In this document: piece by piece, positions 1 to 6,522 of the stretch
How the letters are laid out: each line of letters opens with the position of its first letter
Numbering within the stretch: the stretch's first letter is position 1
IMG/VR virus record: IMGVR_UViG_2675903254_000004
Strand: one strand, 5' to 3'
From: a virus
Lineage: Duplodnaviria; Heunggongvirae; Uroviricota; Caudoviricetes
DNA length: 6,599 nt
Position numbers and translations under genes: made by a program
Notes under the pieces: model-generated
The model's input: only the letters and a program-made list of their open reading frames with translations
Database searches by the model: none
Told to the model about the DNA's origin: nothing

Positions 1-2118
1 TCACCACGGTGAACAATCCCCGCTGGCTCATATTTGCCGCCGGTTCCCGTAAATCCTCCGGTTGCAAAATGGAATTTCGCCGCAGCGGCCTGAATGGCTG
101 TACCGCCTGACGCGGATGCGCCGCCACCAACAGCCCCGCCAATGGCGCTGCCGATACTCCCGACAATCCCCACCATTGCCTGCTTAAGCAGAATTTCTGT
201 CATCATGGACAGCACGGAACGGGTGAAGCTGCGCCAGTTCTGCTCACTGCCGGTCAGCATCGCTGCCATATTCTGTGCAATACCATCAAAGGTCTGCGTG
301 GCTGCACTTTTTACCTGCGACATACTGTCCGTGGCGCTCTCTTCCCACTCACTCCAGCCGGACTTCAGGCCTGCCATCCAGCTCCCGCGAAGCTGGTCTT
401 CAGCCGCCCAGGTCTTTTTCTGCTCTGACATGACGTTATTCAGCGCCAGCGGATTATCGCCATACTGTTCCTTCAGGCGCTGTTCCGTGGCTTCCCGTTC
501 TGCCTGCCGGTCAGTCAGCCCCCGGCTTTTCGCATCAATGGCGGCCCGTTTTGCCCGTTGCTGCTGTGCGAATTTATCCGCCTGCTGCGCCAGCGCGTTC
601 AGGCNNNNNNNNNNNNNNNNNNNNNNNNNNNNNNNNNNNNNNNNNNGCTCCGGCATGCTTCTCCAGCGTCCGGAGTTCTGCCTGAAGCGTCAGCAGGGCA
701 GCATGAGCACTGTCTTCCTGACGATCGCCCGCAGACACCTTCACGCCGGACTGTTTCGGCTTTTTCAGCGTCGCTTCATAATCCTTTTTCGCCGCCGCCA
801 TCAGCGTGTTGTAATCCGCCTGCAGGATTTTCCCGTCTTTCAGTGCCTTGTTCAGTTCTTCCTGACGGGCGGTATATTTCTCCAGCGGCGTCTGCAGCCG
901 TTCGTAAGCCTTCTGCGCCTCTTCGGTATATTTCAGCCGTGACGCTTCGGTATCGCTCTGCTGCTGCGCATTTTTGTCCTGTTGAGTCTGCTGCTCAGCC
1001 TTCTTTCGGGCGGCTTCAAGCGCAAGACGGGCCTTTTCACGATCATCCCAGTAACGCGCCCGCGCTTCATCGTTAACAAAATAATCATCCTTGCGCAGAT
1101 TCCAGATGTCGTCTGCTTTCTTAAACGCAGCCTCTGCCTTAATCAGCATCTCCTGCGCGGTATCAGGACGACCAATATCCAGCACCGCATCCCACATGGA
1201 TTTGAAGGCCCGCGCAGTCCTGTCTGCCCAGGTCTCCAGCGTGCCCATGTTCTCTTTCAGGCGGCGGGTCTGGTCATCAAACCCTTTCGTTGCGGCCTCG
1301 TTCGCCGCCTGCAATGCCCCGGCTTCATCGCCGGAACGCTGCAACTGAGCAACATACGCAATCTGCTCCGCCGTCACGTTATGGAACTGGCGTGCCATCG
1401 CCGTCAGCCCCGACGTCGGGTCTGTGGTCAGCTTCCCGAAGGCTTCAGCGACCTTGTCCACCTCCACGCCGGATGCAGAGGAGAAACGCGCCACACTCTG
1501 GCTGATGGACGCAATCTGAGCCTCACCGCTTACCCCCGCCTTAACCAGTGCGCTGAGTGACTCGCTGGTCTGGTTAAACGTCAGCCCTGCCGCCTGCCCG
1601 GCTCTGGACAGGACCAGCATACGATCTGCCGTCAGTCCCGCCTGATTGCCGGAAAGGACCAGCGTTTTGTTGAAATCGGACAGGGTTGAGTTGCCCTGAT
1701 ACCAGGCATACGCCAGCGCACCGGTCGCCACCGCCAGCGAGGTGGCCCCCACCATCGGCAGGGTGATCGCACCGGCAAGCCCCCTGAACATGGGGATCAT
1801 CCCGCCGAAGGAGTCCTTCACCTGCCCCCCCTGTTGCAGCAGGATCAGCCACGGACTTTGCCCGCCTGCAAGCTGCGTGGCCACGTCGGTGAACTGTGCA
1901 GGCAGCATACGCATGGCGGCTTTATACTGCCCGACGGAAATCCCCGCTTTCTGTGCAGCCAGCGCCTGTCGGCTCAGCGACTGTTCAACGACTGCCGCTG
2001 TTTTTTTCGCATCACTTTCCGTACCGGAAAAATGACGCCTGACTCTGGCCATCTGCTCGTCAAATCTGGCCGCATCCAGACTTAAATCAACGACCAGATC
2101 GCCTACCGGTTCAGCCAT
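1..2118 (-). CDS. H: Tail tape measure protein (lambda gpH-like); partial, 3' end beyond window start; interrupted by N-run at 605-646
   Basis: ATG at 2118-2116 preceded by GGAGGAG (plus 2126-2132, 7-nt spacer). Translation MAEPVGDLVVDLSLDAARFDEQMARVRRHF... matches lambda gpH as I recall it. The frame stays open from 2118 down to the N-run. Below the gap a different minus frame continues the same protein (LNALAQQADKFAQQQRAKRAAIDAKSRGLTDRQ... through ...AAAAKFHFATGGFTGTGGKYEPAGIVHRGE at positions 1-90). The ORF-track end at 574 is an artefact of reading through the Ns in the wrong frame. Confidence 0.93.
605..646. other. Run of 42 N (assembly gap or masked sequence) inside the tape measure gene
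   Basis: Direct observation. H codons above the gap have their first base at positions divisible by 3 (e.g. 654, 651, 648); below the gap they fall at positions of the form 3k+2 (605, 602). The N-run length therefore cannot be the true length. Confidence 0.99.
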
Positions 2119-2949
2119 ACCGGACTCCTCCTGCGATCCCTTCTGATACTGTCATCAGCATTACGTCATCCTCCGTCATGTCCGCCACATCCGGGGAAGC
2201 GGGGATAACTTCATTCCCGTCCGGGCCAAAGCGGACGCCTCCGGCAAGCCCTGCCGCTTTCTGCATCAGCACATCATCTTCAGGCTCTTCGTCAGCCTCA
2301 CGCCGGTTCAGCAGACTGAAATCCAGCGGATGCATATCCGGATCGCTGAAAAACAGGCTGAGCACGGTGTACGTCAGCCCGGAAAAGTGCATATCCAGCA
2401 GAACATCATGAAAATAATGGGTACTGTAAAAGCGGTGCCAGTCGGCATACTCCGTGGATGACATCCCGGCAAGCATGGCACGCCAGTCGGGTCGCCCCAT
2501 CTCGCGCGCCAGTTTCAGGGCAAAACTCAGCTCACCGTCGAACACTTTCCCGCAGAAACAGGCTCTGCAGGCCCGGCGTCCTCTGCCTGTTCAGGGGCAT
2601 CATTCACCACAAACTCATACATACCGGACAGCCGGTACACCACGTTTTCAGCATGAGAAATTGCCTCTGTGGGCCAGGTGGTAAGCACTTCCTGCTCAAT
2701 CTGTTTAACGGCTTCATTCATGGAAGGCTGCTTTGTCTTCTGCGGATGGTTATGCCACAGGGACATCGCCACCACAAAAGCACCGGTTCTGATGGCGTCT
2801 TCCACTGTAAACTTCCGGTTGCTGTCTGACTCCGCCTGTTCTGCCTGCCGTTTCATCAGGGCGAGATGCTCAATACGCTGCAGGGCTGAAAGTTCAGAAA
2901 GCGTGACGGTCACGCCGTTATGTTCAAATGATTCGGTTTTCAGGAACAT
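2111..2949 (-). CDS. T: Tail assembly chaperone G-T fusion, made by programmed -1 ribosomal frameshift at GGGAAAG (2551-2545); T portion is 2111-2545
   Basis: The -1 frame ORF beginning within the slippery heptamer has no independent SD or ATG and translates (V)FDGELSFALKLAREMGRPDWRAMLAGMSSTEYADWHRFYSTHYFHDVLLDMHFSGL..., which is lambda gpT. Stop TGA at 2113-2111 overlaps the H start. Confidence 0.88.
2527..2949 (-). CDS. G: Tail assembly chaperone G (lambda gpG-like)
   Basis: ATG at 2949-2947 with GGAGAG upstream. The 140-aa product MFLKTESFEHNGVTVTLSELSALQRIEHLALMKRQAEQ...SAGKCSTVS matches lambda gpG in length and sequence. Stop TGA at 2529-2527. Confidence 0.95.
   Translation of the reverse strand: MFLKTESFEHNGVTVTLSELSALQRIEHLALMKRQAEQAESDSNRKFTVEDAIRTGAFVVAMSLWHNHPQKTKQPSMNEAVKQIEQEVLTTWPTEAISHAENVVYRLSGMYEFVVNDAPEQAEDAGPAEPVSAGKCSTVS
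2545..2551 (-). promoter_or_regulatory. Slippery heptanucleotide G GGA AAG (X XXY YYZ) for the -1 frameshift joining G to T
   Basis: The minus strand reads GCG GGA AAG TGT in the G frame (codons S-A-G-K-C near the G C-terminus). Re-pairing in the -1 frame gives GGG AAA then GTG TTC GAC GGT = V F D G, the start of the T-frame ORF. Confidence 0.85.
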
Positions 2950-2964
2950 CGCTGACTCTCCGGA

Positions 2965-3705
2965 TTAACTGTCGGTGACAGTGATTTCTGCAACCGCAGC
3001 AAGTTCACCATTACCGGATACGACCGGAATGTTGACCTTGCCTGCAGCAACACCTTTCACGGTGATGGTCATACCACTGACCGACACGGTGGCTTTTGTT
3101 TTATCCGCAGACACCGCACGGAAGCTCTTGTCGGTTGCGCCTTCCGGCTGGAATGCCACGGTCAGCGTGGTGCTCTGCCCTTTCACCACCGAGGTGCTGG
3201 CAGGCGTCACGGTCATGCCGGTTGCCGCTGTGACCGTGCTGCGATCTTCTGCCATCGACGGGCGTCCCACATTGGTGACCTTCACCGTGCGGGTGATCAC
3301 TTCCTTCGCCGTCACCGCTTTACCGATACTGCTGACCCAGCCACGGAACACATCGACCGTGCCGTTCGGGAAGCGGATTTTATAGGCACGGGTATCACCT
3401 TCATTAAACCACGCCAGCAGCGCCTGCTGCCCCTGCTCTCCGGGCATCCACGCCAGCGTGAAGCTGGTATCTCCGGCTGATTTCTGCCCCTGCCCGGTCG
3501 CAGTCCAGTCCGCATCTTCATCATCGAGATAGCTGTCGTCATAGGACTCAGCGGTCAGTTCGCCGGGCGTCAGGTCTTTAACTTTTGCCAGACGCGACCA
3601 GTCAACGTCTGAAAGCGGATTCGCATAAGGGTCACCGCTCCCCTTATAAACCCACAGGGTGGTCCCGGCACCTTTCACCGGCATTACAGGATTTGGTACA
3701 GGCAT
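2965..3705 (-). CDS. V: Major tail tube protein (lambda gpV-like) with C-terminal Ig-like domain
   Basis: ATG at 3705-3703 with GAGGA upstream. The 246-aa product [57 protein letters not shown]... matches lambda gpV. The C-terminal ~85 aa ([32 protein letters not shown]...[18 protein letters not shown]) is the Ig-like (Big_2-type) domain. The ORF-track start at 3735 is an upstream extension that would overlap U and was not used. Confidence 0.96.
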
Positions 3706-3712
3706 AGCGTCC

Positions 3713-4108
3713 TCACATTTCATAGGTAATGACATAAGTCAGATCGGCTGAACTCCACAGGCCCGCATCATCGTCGCGTCGGTAGTCATAGCCACTGGCC
3801 ACCATACTGGTGATCAACTCTGACAGTGCCGGGATATCGCTCATCACCGGATAAATCCGGGACTCCATCCACGCATCCAGCTCTGAATCCGGCACCTGAG
3901 CAGGCAGGAAAACTTCGATATGCAGCTCCGCCTGCCAGGTATCGCTGTCCAGCTCTTCGCCCGTGTATTCAGCGCCGGTGAGATAAACGGCAACTGCCGG
4001 AAAATCCGCCTCATCAAAAACAGCGGGGCGACCATCAAAAAACGTCGCCCCGGTGTCATGCTTCTCCAGTGCATCCAGTACGGCTGCACGGAGTTCAGTA
4101 TGTTTCAT
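3713..4108 (-). CDS. U: Tail terminator protein (lambda gpU-like)
   Basis: The 131-aa product [71 protein letters not shown]...TYVITYEM matches lambda gpU. The start ATG overlaps the Z stop as ATGA (4105-4108). Confidence 0.96.
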
Positions 4109-4683
4109 CGCTTTATTACCATCCTCAGTTGATGCTGCAGCGCATAGCCCAGCTCTTTCGGAAGACGTTCACGCCGTATCCGCTCAATATTTTGTTTAAA
4201 CGCCGTGGTCAGCGGCACCGCCATCGGGATTTTCACCACATCAATGGGGTAACGGTTTTTCCCGGCCACACGCTGCATAACATGCCACCGGCCATTTTTC
4301 AGTTGCTGAATAAACGCGCCGGGAATACGACGGTTACCCACCACAAGCACGCTGCCGCCACCTTTCAGGGATGAACGCTGCCCCTTTTTACGACGCCTGC
4401 GGCGCGAAAGGACAACCCGCGCATTACCCAGCTTGATTACGGGCAAATCCCCCCGGTTAACCTTGATTCTGGCCTGCGGATTTTTGACCGTGGCCCTTTT
4501 CAGCCTGGCCCTTTCCTTTACCAGTTTCCGGCGTACCTTTGTCTCACGGGCAACCTGTGACACCGACTGCGATATCGCGGATGAAGCAACGCGGTTAATG
4601 GCCATTGCGGCGGCACCGGGCACCGCCGTTCTGCTGATACGGCTGAGGTTTTCAACGGCCTGCTCAAGACCTTTTATGGCCAT
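4105..4683 (-). CDS. Z: Tail completion protein (lambda gpZ-like)
   Basis: The 192-aa product MAIKGLEQAVENLSRISRTAVPGAAAMAINRVASSAISQS...[12 protein letters not shown] matches lambda gpZ, including the RRRRRKKGQRSS basic tract. ATG at 4683-4681 with AGGGGGA upstream. Confidence 0.96.
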   Translation of the reverse strand: MAIKGLEQAVENLSRISRTAVPGAAAMAINRVASSAISQSVSQVARETKVRRKLVKERARLKRATVKNPQARIKVNRGDLPVIKLGNARVVLSRRRRRKKGQRSSLKGGGSVLVVGNRRIPGAFIQQLKNGRWHVMQRVAGKNRYPIDVVKIPMAVPLTTAFKQNIERIRRERLPKELGYALQHQLRMVIKR

Positions 4684-5048
4684 ACATCCCCCTTCCAGCG
4701 GCGACGGTTAACGGCAGGCGGTACGCCCCGCCCAAGCCAGAGATGACAGCTTCCGCCATCATCCGGCGAAATCCGGTCTATCCAGAAGTTTTCCTCACCG
4801 ATGGTCAGCGTGTCGCCGCGCCGCAGCTGCCGCACATCATCAGTCCGGACAAACAGGGACGGGCTGGAGCCTTCAACGCGCACGCCCTGTCCGGCATAGC
4901 TGATATTTTCAGGGTCATCAAAAACACCACGTATCACAGCACCGGACTGCTCACCGGATGTCATGGTGGCTGACGTTCCCATGTACCCGCGTATCGTTTC
5001 ATCGGCGCAGGCAATGGCAGCATCGAACAGGTTATCGAAATCAGCCAC
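4674..5048 (-). CDS. FII: Head-tail joining protein (lambda gpFII-like); GTG start; C-terminus 7 codons longer than the 117 aa I recall for lambda FII
   Basis: GTG at 5048-5046 preceded by GGGAGG. Product (M)ADFDNLFDAAIACADETIRGYMGTSATMTSGEQSGAVIRGVFDDPENISYAGQGVRVEGSSPSLFVRTDD...GVPPAVNRRR followed by WKGDVWP and TAA at 4676-4674. The 3' end overlaps the Z start by 10 nt. Confidence 0.9.
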   Translation of the reverse strand: MADFDNLFDAAIACADETIRGYMGTSATMTSGEQSGAVIRGVFDDPENISYAGQGVRVEGSSPSLFVRTDDVRQLRRGDTLTIGEENFWIDRISPDDGGSCHLWLGRGVPPAVNRRRWKGDVWP

Positions 5049-5059
5049 AGCGCCTCCCG

Positions 5060-5455
5060 TTATTGCATTCTGGCCAGGCCGCGCTCTGTCATTTCAGCTG
5101 CCACACCGGCAGAGACACGGAACGCCGTTCCCGGCAGCACAAATGCCACAGCCTCATCCCGCGTGGCGTGAAGTGCATCAGTATGCAGCGTCACCAGTGC
5201 CACAACCGTGACCAGATCAGCCGTATCAGTCACGGTATCCGGCTGCGCTGATACAACCTCATTTTCATGTCCGGTCAGCGCATTTTCCGGGCTGACAGAT
5301 GTGTCCTGACCGGCAGCGTCATCCGTGTCATCAAGCTCCTCTTCCAGCTCTGCCACACGGAGTGCCAGTTCTTCTTTCGTCCCCGTCAGGCTGACATCAC
5401 GGTTCAGTTGCTCACCCAGCACCTGAAGACGGGCAATCAGTTCATCTTTCGTCAT
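5060..5455 (-). CDS. FI: Head assembly / DNA packaging accessory protein (lambda gpFI-like)
   Basis: ATG at 5455-5453 preceded by GGAGGAG (plus 5459-5465). The 131-aa product MTKDELIARLQVLGEQLNRDVSLTGTKEELALRVAELEEELDDTDD...HTDALHATRDEAVAFVLPGTAFRVSAGVAAEMTERGLARMQ matches lambda gpFI. The ORF-track start at 5494 is an upstream extension into the intergenic hairpin and was not used. Confidence 0.93.
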   Translation of the reverse strand: MTKDELIARLQVLGEQLNRDVSLTGTKEELALRVAELEEELDDTDDAAGQDTSVSPENALTGHENEVVSAQPDTVTDTADLVTVVALVTLHTDALHATRDEAVAFVLPGTAFRVSAGVAAEMTERGLARMQ

Positions 5456-5496: not shown

Positions 5497-6522
5497 TTAC
5501 GCCAGTTGTACGGACACGAACGCATCAGGGTCAGCCAGCAGCATCAGCGGTGCTGACTGAATCATGGTGAACTCACGCGCCGGATCGCCGGTGGTCACCC
5601 AGTTTTTCGGGTAGCGGGCAGAGGCGTTAATACCTTCGCGCTGTGCGTCCGCATCCTGAATGCAGCCATAGGTGCGCAGACCGCGTGCCTGAGTGTTCCC
5701 CAGCACCATCGTGTTGTCCGGAAGGAAGTTCTTTTTGACGTCGTTTTCCACGTACTGTCCGGAATACACGACGATCGCCGTATCGCCATACATCCCCTTA
5801 TAGGACACCGCTTCGCCCAGGTCTTTTACCGCTGTCTCCAGCTCGGAATGAGAGCCGCGACGGGTATCCAGCTTCTCCTTGACGGCTTTGAAGGAACGGA
5901 ACAGCGCCCAGCCTTTCGGATCAAACACGATGATATTCACCACACCGCTGGCGTTCAGCGCGTAGGCTTCGATATCGTCGGTCGGGTCATACGTGGACTT
6001 GTCACGCTTGCTCCACTCCGTACCGCCGGACTGCGTGATGTTGTTCGCCACACTGCGGCCCATATCCACTTCAACCGGATCGAAGGCTTCACCGGTCATG
6101 GTGTATTTGCCCTTAAGCACGGCAGAAACTGCCTGCATCTCTTCGACCTGAGCAATGGCCAGCTCTTCGTCTCGCATGTTCTGCAGGATGATGCGACGGC
6201 GGCGGTAAGCCGGGTCCGCCAGATTCTGTGGATCTTCATCCGGCAGGCGACGCAGGGTCATCTGCGGATTCACTTCATGCTTGGGTTTGACATATCCCGG
6301 CGTAAATTCAGAGGTGGAGCCGCCACGGGAGCGGATAACCTCACCGGAAACAATCGGCGAAACGTACAGCGCCATGTTTACCAGTCCCGGAATTTGTGAG
6401 AGATAGACTTTCTCCGTGGTGAAGGGATAGCTCTCACGGAAAAAGAGACGCAGAAACAGCGGATCAAACTTAAATTTCTGCTCATTTGCCGCCAGCAGCT
6501 GGGCGGTTGTGTACATCGACAT
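5497..6522 (-). CDS. E: Major capsid protein (lambda gpE-like)
   Basis: ATG at 6522-6520. The 341-aa product MSMYTTAQLLAANEQKFKFDPLFLRLFFRESYPFTTEKVYLSQIPGLVNMALYVSPIVSGEVIRSRGGSTSEFTPGYVKPKHEV...MLLADPDAFVSVQLA matches lambda gpE. TAA at 5499-5497. The ORF-track start (GTG at 6549) lies inside the upstream hairpin and was not used. Confidence 0.97.
   Translation of the reverse strand: MSMYTTAQLLAANEQKFKFDPLFLRLFFRESYPFTTEKVYLSQIPGLVNMALYVSPIVSGEVIRSRGGSTSEFTPGYVKPKHEVNPQMTLRRLPDEDPQNLADPAYRRRRIILQNMRDEELAIAQVEEMQAVSAVLKGKYTMTGEAFDPVEVDMGRSVANNITQSGGTEWSKRDKSTYDPTDDIEAYALNASGVVNIIVFDPKGWALFRSFKAVKEKLDTRRGSHSELETAVKDLGEAVSYKGMYGDTAIVVYSGQYVENDVKKNFLPDNTMVLGNTQARGLRTYGCIQDADAQREGINASARYPKNWVTTGDPAREFTMIQSAPLMLLADPDAFVSVQLA

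Follow-up and report, generated by a model that had tools for sequence, protein, structure and literature searches.

The DNA analysed here is a stretch of 6,599 nucleotides, referred to as the window, whose minus strand carries the morphogenesis genes of phage lambda in the lambda order. On the basis of the map of open reading frames and of the comparison with lambda, E was placed at about 5497-6522, FI at 5060-5455, V at 2965-3705 and G at 2527-2949, followed by the first two-thirds of H, all on the minus strand; T, on the same strand, is entered via the GGGAAAG slippery site at 2545-2551 and its frame runs on to 2111. The lambda programmed -1 frameshift heptamer of G/T, GGGAAAG, is thus conserved at the end of G (...SAGKCSTVS*). 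In reverse complement, the window matches lambda 6058-12013 at 97.85% identity, and at 99.67% past a run of 42 N. This run, at 605-646 within the tape-measure gene H, replaces around 188 nt of lambda and of the locus in E. coli O26:H11 11368; since these nucleotides are present both in lambda and in the near-identical O26 locus, the N represent masked or scaffold-gap sequence and no deletion. The gene that has diverged most from lambda is FI, with 16 differences in 132 aa including a deletion of one residue, which suggests a mosaic patch or, possibly, a faster evolution of the FI linker region.

The gene of interest, FII, encodes the head-tail joining or head closure protein and occupies 4674..5048 on the minus strand, corresponding to 124 amino acid residues. 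Its open reading frame begins with GTG, as in lambda, within a start context that is identical in both. Towards its end, the minus strand reads ...CCG CCT GCC GTT AAC CGT CGC CGC TGG AAG GGG GAT GTA TGG CCA TAA in the FII frame. Reading of the sequence and alignment with lambda place the first TGG (Trp118, 4695..4697) at the site of the lambda TGA stop, the variant base being position 4695, which is G on the coding strand and C on the plus strand. The extension of seven codons that follows from this, WKGDVWP (4677..4697), is coded by the Z ribosome-binding region and by the first 7 nt of Z, and the new TAA stop (4674..4676) is made up of Z codons 3-4 (ATA AAA) read in the FII frame. The Z Shine-Dalgarno, AAGGGGGA (4687..4694), in the window lies within the FII reading frame; it is identical in the window, in lambda and in phage 4A7. 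The Z gene itself (4105..4683, minus strand) encodes the tail completion protein of 192 aa with two substitutions relative to lambda, and has its ATG at 4683-4681, so that FII and Z overlap by 10 nt and the TAA corresponds to nt 8-10 of Z. Z in turn overlaps by 4 nt (ATGA) with U (3713..4108, minus strand), which encodes the tail terminator, the protein that the C-terminal loop of FII contacts, and whose product differs from that of lambda by D97E only.

In the annotation of lambda (NC_001416), Fii spans 7612-7965 (117 aa) and Z starts at 7977, leaving a spacer of 11 nt. This matches what a sequence-only reading of the window had put forward, namely a lambda FII of 117 aa ending NRRR with its stop about 11 nt before Z. 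The same reading had described a stop lost by one base relative to lambda, which the reference alignment confirms (TGA versus TGG), a seven-residue extension running across the Z Shine-Dalgarno and ATG, which is read directly from the window, and a termination of FII 7 nt inside Z, which agrees with the positions of TAA (4676-4674) and ATG (4683-4681); all coordinates that it gave are correct. The comparison that it proposed, against the lambda reference and other lambdoid FII genes, was carried out, and lambda has no such extension, its protein of 117 aa ending at RRR. Indeed, over the alignment that starts at FII codon 108 and crosses the junction into Z, the change from TGA to TGG is the sole difference between the window and lambda.

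The two FII proteins are co-linear up to NRRR and identical at 112 of 117 positions (96%, E = 8e-85). A phmmer search of the PDB with the window FII retrieved lambda gpFII as sole match (1K0H/8K37, E = 1.6e-74), and the precomputed PF05354 (Phage_attach) domain is present on FII homologues. Both the homology to lambda gpFII, which covers the whole domain, and the operon position, between FI and Z and upstream of U, place the window protein in the gpFII family, and the GTG start, the gene order E-FI-FII-Z-U-V-G/T-H and the Z ribosome-binding site are all common to lambda and the window. The differences are TGG for TGA, 124 versus 117 aa, and an overlap of 10 nt versus a spacer of 11 nt. With seven residues beyond RRR, the window protein departs from the C-terminus ...PPAxNRRR-stop at around residue 117, which is typical of the family, although not formally defining.

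The conservation of this C-terminus was analysed across the family. Among the 120 cluster representatives listed, about 45 have exactly 117 aa; their identities range over 59-99%, and they belong to Escherichia, Salmonella, Citrobacter, Cronobacter, Klebsiella, Leclercia and Enterobacter. The other lengths inspected are mostly fragments, frameshifts and fusions. An exact RRR end is present in 84 of the 148 family proteins that were fetched, and several more have RRR variants with one substitution and unchanged length. The WKGDVWP tail occurs in five of the 148, all of one haplotype; two Salmonella-type forms continue for one or two residues past RRR, and the remaining tails, QGGMLCP in P0066 and another short one in P0053, are each a singleton stop-loss. 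P0066 results from an independent event in a 63%-identical homologue (L131, 8346-8375, on a Logan SRR16828820 contig), in which RRR is followed by CAG GGA GGA ATG TTA TGT CCA TAA; its tail has likewise seven residues, as translation terminates at the same TAA from Z codons 3-4. In phage 4A7, whose FII matches that of the window at 64.5%, the protein has 117 aa and the TGA, the 11-nt spacer and the same ribosome-binding site are found. Eight of the nine possible single-base changes of TGA abolish the stop. The fact that the stop has been kept over such divergence, together with the singleton status of the other stop-losses, suggests that an extension of FII would usually be selected against over the long term.

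We have then considered how widespread the TGG junction is. Many finished E. coli chromosomes, that of O26:H11 11368 among them, contain a 301-bp segment spanning it at 100% identity. For the counts, 31-mers centred on the variant base were searched with megablast, so that a match must include this base, and the resulting figures are lower bounds since junctions with other flanking SNPs go uncounted. Within 5,426 complete E. coli genomes, the TGG 31-mer was found at 209 places in 198 genomes and the TGA 31-mer at 3,181 places in 2,432 genomes, TGG making up around 6% of the counted chromosomal copies of the junction. The same 31-mer search in sequenced phage records with this junction gave 81 with TGA and none with TGG (0/81), while in IMG/VR TGG is present on 2 contigs versus at least 120 for TGA, both TGG contigs bearing UViG identifiers that resemble those of isolate genomes. 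The contrast between phage (0/81) and chromosomal (209/3,390) copies corresponds to a one-sided Fisher p = 0.006 if copies are taken as independent. They are not: laboratory derivatives of lambda account for many of the phage records, and clonal STEC for many of the genomes. The contrast is a hint of a cost of the TGG allele and no proof of it. A comparison of the 124-aa protein to phages by tblastn is uninformative as to an extended FII in isolates, since the alignment passes through the stop and coverage is 1-124 even for lambda; the identity was at most 98.4% for any phage record.

A corresponding picture is obtained at the protein level. RefSeq/PGAP annotates a 375-nt CDS as 'head-tail joining protein' of 124 aa (WP_000752961.1, UniRef100 A0A0F3VHN9), represented in O26:H11 11368 by ECO26_RS03155, and this CDS ends in WKGDVWP at the equivalent position, as in the window. 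Between the 6.6-kb window and the O26 11368 locus there are two mismatches, with part of H masked by the 42 N and no difference in FII or in the junction. The exact 124-aa protein is found on at least 1,000 contigs in a collection of 15 billion proteins, with UniRef and 'MULTISPECIES' RefSeq names, and its 117-aa twin of the same haplotype is likewise on at least 1,000 contigs. It is therefore near-certain that TGG is a genuine E. coli prophage allele, of which the existence, the frequency and the genomic contexts are directly observed, and the 124-aa FII is an already catalogued natural minority allele of a very well known protein.

The origin of the allele is indicated by Perceval (OV696612), a sequenced phage that has the same FII-Z haplotype as the window but keeps TGA and an FII of 117 aa: in 300 nt there is a single mismatch, precisely the A of TGA. 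TGG is therefore a derived stop-loss. Other 124-aa descendants of it are P0129 and WP_484082880.1 (strain N96), whereas P0036 and P0137 are descendants with an internal deletion, and in P0119, from another genome, a frameshift after WKG joins FII to Z in a fusion of 183 aa. Decay of the allele continues, as illustrated by this FII-Z fusion and by the IS3-family element that splits FII in O111 (L169, 12402-14037).

Six TGG carriers were inspected in respect to their genomic context, and these fall on two prophage backbones. O26:H11 11368, O111:NM 08-4377, A15 (from an otter) and E105 (from a fish) carry the allele at the DLP12/argU site, between fimZ/tRNA-Arg and ompT/envY. The prophage of O26:H11 11368 is a defective one, in which C contains ISCro1/IS66, K has an internal stop and an IS3 insertion is also present, and that of O111:NM 08-4377 is a remnant, in which IS3 splits FII and IS1203 cuts H. 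In A15 and E105 all genes from Nu1 to the tail fibre are annotated intact, and E105 and O26 have the same E, FI, FII, Z, U, V, G, T and H proteins. EC01307, with an intact morphogenesis operon, and N96, with a frameshift in E, have instead a Qin-type backbone, with cspI, ydfR, rrrQ, gnsB and nohA. With the defective copy in O26 11368 the window shares 99.98% identity, and with IMG/VR locus L006 100% over 2.7 kb; STEC genomes hold up to five copies of the junction. Clearly, the occurrence on two backbones and the operons annotated intact in A15, E105 and EC01307 rule out that the allele is limited to one decayed prophage. TGG predates the IS insertions, and it has passed from one backbone to the other, whether as phage or through recombination of co-resident prophages. 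Among the genes of the full-length prophage at the DLP12/argU site (O26 11368 L003, E105 L168) are also the morons iss/bor, an ompC-like porin and lom; the K-12 DLP12, which keeps nohD and has lost the morphogenesis genes, is presumably a deletion remnant of such a prophage.

The structural consequences of the extension can be considered in the light of the lambda virion, in which the gpFII hexamer sits under gpW and binds the gpU ring, with all residues from 4 to 117 resolved by cryo-EM (Xiao et al. 2023, PMC10721106). [quoted passage not shown] This bears out the importance for head-tail joining that the sequence-only reading had attributed to the C-terminal region of FII, and as the C-terminal loop contacts gpU, the seven added residues begin at the head-tail interface. 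A compensating change in the gpU O-loop (residues 25-37) was looked for by comparison with lambda and none was found, since the only substitution, D97E, lies outside the O-loop, and this candidate was rejected. With gpU differing only by D97E and Z by two substitutions, there is no sign of compensation.

We have also analysed the effects that the stop-loss may have on the translation of FII and Z. In the predicted RNA fold of the 100-nt junction the minimum free energy is identical for TGA and TGG, and the fold is no more stable than that of shuffled sequence (z-scores 0.0-0.5), with no sequestering structure; an effect of the SNP on the RNA structure at the Z start was thus rejected. The SNP is located immediately 5' of AAGGGGG, the core of the Z Shine-Dalgarno, and the changed base pairs with the anti-Shine-Dalgarno in neither allele. 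As it is outside the core, it should not alter the Shine-Dalgarno pairing, and a strengthening of the site by the SNP was likewise rejected. What does change is the place of FII termination, which in lambda is on the Z Shine-Dalgarno, 11 nt before the ATG, and in the window is past both the Shine-Dalgarno and the ATG, 7 nt after the latter. Both distances, 11 nt upstream and 7 nt downstream, are within the range of ribosome reinitiation, so that the tighter FII-Z coupling proposed from the sequence is possible, although unsupported, and it is just as possible that independent Z initiation is occluded.

In respect to known arrangements, stop and start of FII and Z do overlap on one mRNA, the TAA lying 7 nt past the first base of the Z ATG, as in coupled overlapping genes. 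The likeness to the coupled overlaps of phage late operons, such as the Z/U ATGA of the window itself, consists in an upstream stop within a few nucleotides of a downstream start on a polycistronic mRNA; the difference is that the FII/Z overlap arises from a recent stop-loss and is no conserved arrangement. Programmed readthrough, in turn, involves a retained in-frame stop, whereas the codon in the window is a sense TGG. Of the three stop codons, UGA is the one that leaks most in E. coli, through misreading by tRNA-Trp, for which reason wild-type lambda should already make traces of the same 124-aa protein. A search of the literature on readthrough of the lambda FII UGA returned nothing relevant.

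Altogether, these results are best accounted for by a heritable stop-loss that behaves as a neutral or mildly deleterious passenger, and we consider this statement, taken as a whole and with a phenotypic part that we infer, to be probably correct. An A-to-G transition on the coding strand has converted TGA to TGG in the FII gene of a lambda-type prophage operon, and FII translation continues to the TAA formed by Z codons 3-4, adding the tail WKGDVWP. The change arose, perhaps only once, within a haplotype of which versions with TGA are also found (e.g. Perceval), and this passenger would have spread among lambdoid prophages (DLP12/argU-site and Qin-type) and expanded alongside successful host clones such as O26/O111/O103 STEC. 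At the FII-gpU interface the tail would be tolerated, or would cause mild harm to head-tail joining or to the balance between FII and Z. The allele is most likely without new function, and it can persist because selection acts on prophage structural genes only intermittently. Against the passenger reading, it is noted that operons annotated intact and the presence on two backbones would also fit a functional, even advantageous, variant spreading as virions.

A first alternative is that the stop-loss is a disabling lesion: the tail would block the contact between FII and gpU, head-tail joining would fail, and the allele would mark non-transmissible, decaying prophages. The fact that loop 108-117 is ordered in the virion and touches the gpU O-loop (PMC10721106) agrees with this, as do the conservation of the RRR end at 117 aa down to around 60% identity and the lack of TGG in the 81 sequenced phage isolates with the junction; in addition, the closest relative of the window is a defective prophage, and in O111 FII was later struck by IS3. 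However, three of the sampled carriers have all head and tail genes annotated as intact, and a long-standing loss of function fits poorly with two backbones, unless the allele has spread only by recombination of co-resident prophages. Moreover, lambda itself should tolerate the traces of the 124-aa protein that are expected from its leaky UGA. It is essentially because of the intact operons on two backbones that we regard a disabling lesion as less likely than a passenger, and on the whole as rather unlikely.

Still less probable is an adaptive variant, in which the tail would change properties of the neck, such as virion stability or the head-tail compatibility of co-resident lambdoid prophages, or the overlap would re-tune Z synthesis in that the initiation of Z would come to depend on ribosomes translating FII. 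The share of around 6% of junction copies, the two backbones with intact operons and the position of the FII stop, now inside Z, could be taken in its favour, and in STEC genomes with up to five junction copies a mixing of heads and tails is plausible. On the other hand, gpU does not co-vary (only D97E, outside the O-loop) and Z has just two substitutions, the sequence of the tail is wholly dictated by the pre-existing Z ribosome-binding site and start, the allele is found in none of the 81 phage isolates and is rare in IMG/VR, the 117-aa end is conserved throughout the family, the RNA structure is unchanged, and clonal expansion of the hosts can account for the frequency. The missing co-variation and a tail dictated by the Z ribosome-binding site make an adaptive role the least supported, and we would give only a slight chance to the 124-aa FII being a functional neck variant, a sort of hard-wired readthrough isoform whose tail, at the FII-gpU interface, alters joining specificity or virion stability among the many lambdoid prophages that share an STEC host, or which re-tunes Z dosage. 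Finally, a sequencing or assembly error in the window, the true base being A and the true codon TGA, which the sequence-only reading had considered an equal possibility, is hardly credible: although the window is draft sequence interrupted by 42 N, and a TGC at the stop codon in a lambda contaminant contig of 0.6x coverage indicates that errors at this site occur, the counts in finished genomes and contigs rule it out, considering that the identical TGG junction is present in 198 finished E. coli genomes from various laboratories and platforms, that the 124-aa protein is annotated in RefSeq and found on at least 1,000 contigs, and that the window is 99.98% identical to one finished TGG genome.

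As a consequence for annotation, the 124-aa FII is to be retained as a genuine allele rather than 'corrected' to 117 aa, and beyond this its importance is small. It may conveniently serve as a lineage marker for one family of DLP12-site and Qin-type lambdoid prophages of E. coli, including those of O26/O111/O103 STEC, and it constitutes a natural test of how far an extension of the gpFII C-terminus is tolerated at gpU, as well as of how lambda late-operon expression responds to a stop shifted across the start of the next gene. If the tail does affect head-tail compatibility, the allele would be relevant to the ways in which co-resident prophages prevent the mixing of their parts or take advantage of it.

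In the course of the analysis the lambda FII-Z junction was also met in GTDB representative genomes (L132-L167) of about 30 unrelated taxa, among them Arthrobacter, Chromatium, Shewanella, Neobacillus and Bradyrhizobium. These matches are mostly on short, low-coverage or approximately 48 kb contigs, and are thus almost certainly lambda DNA contamination. The codon at the stop site is TGA in 35 and TGC in 1, a scan that is uninformative on the host range of the allele because most of the matches are such contamination in unrelated taxa; the single TGC, on a 0.6x contig of Pseudoxanthomonas (L153), is probably a read error. A similar case is the record MW057783.1, 'Campylobacter phage CJLB-4' (H148), of 48,361 bp, in which the FII match has the score and identity of that in lambda and lies at nearly the same coordinate, 7531 versus 7612, so that from its sequence this record looks like lambda rather than a Campylobacter phage.
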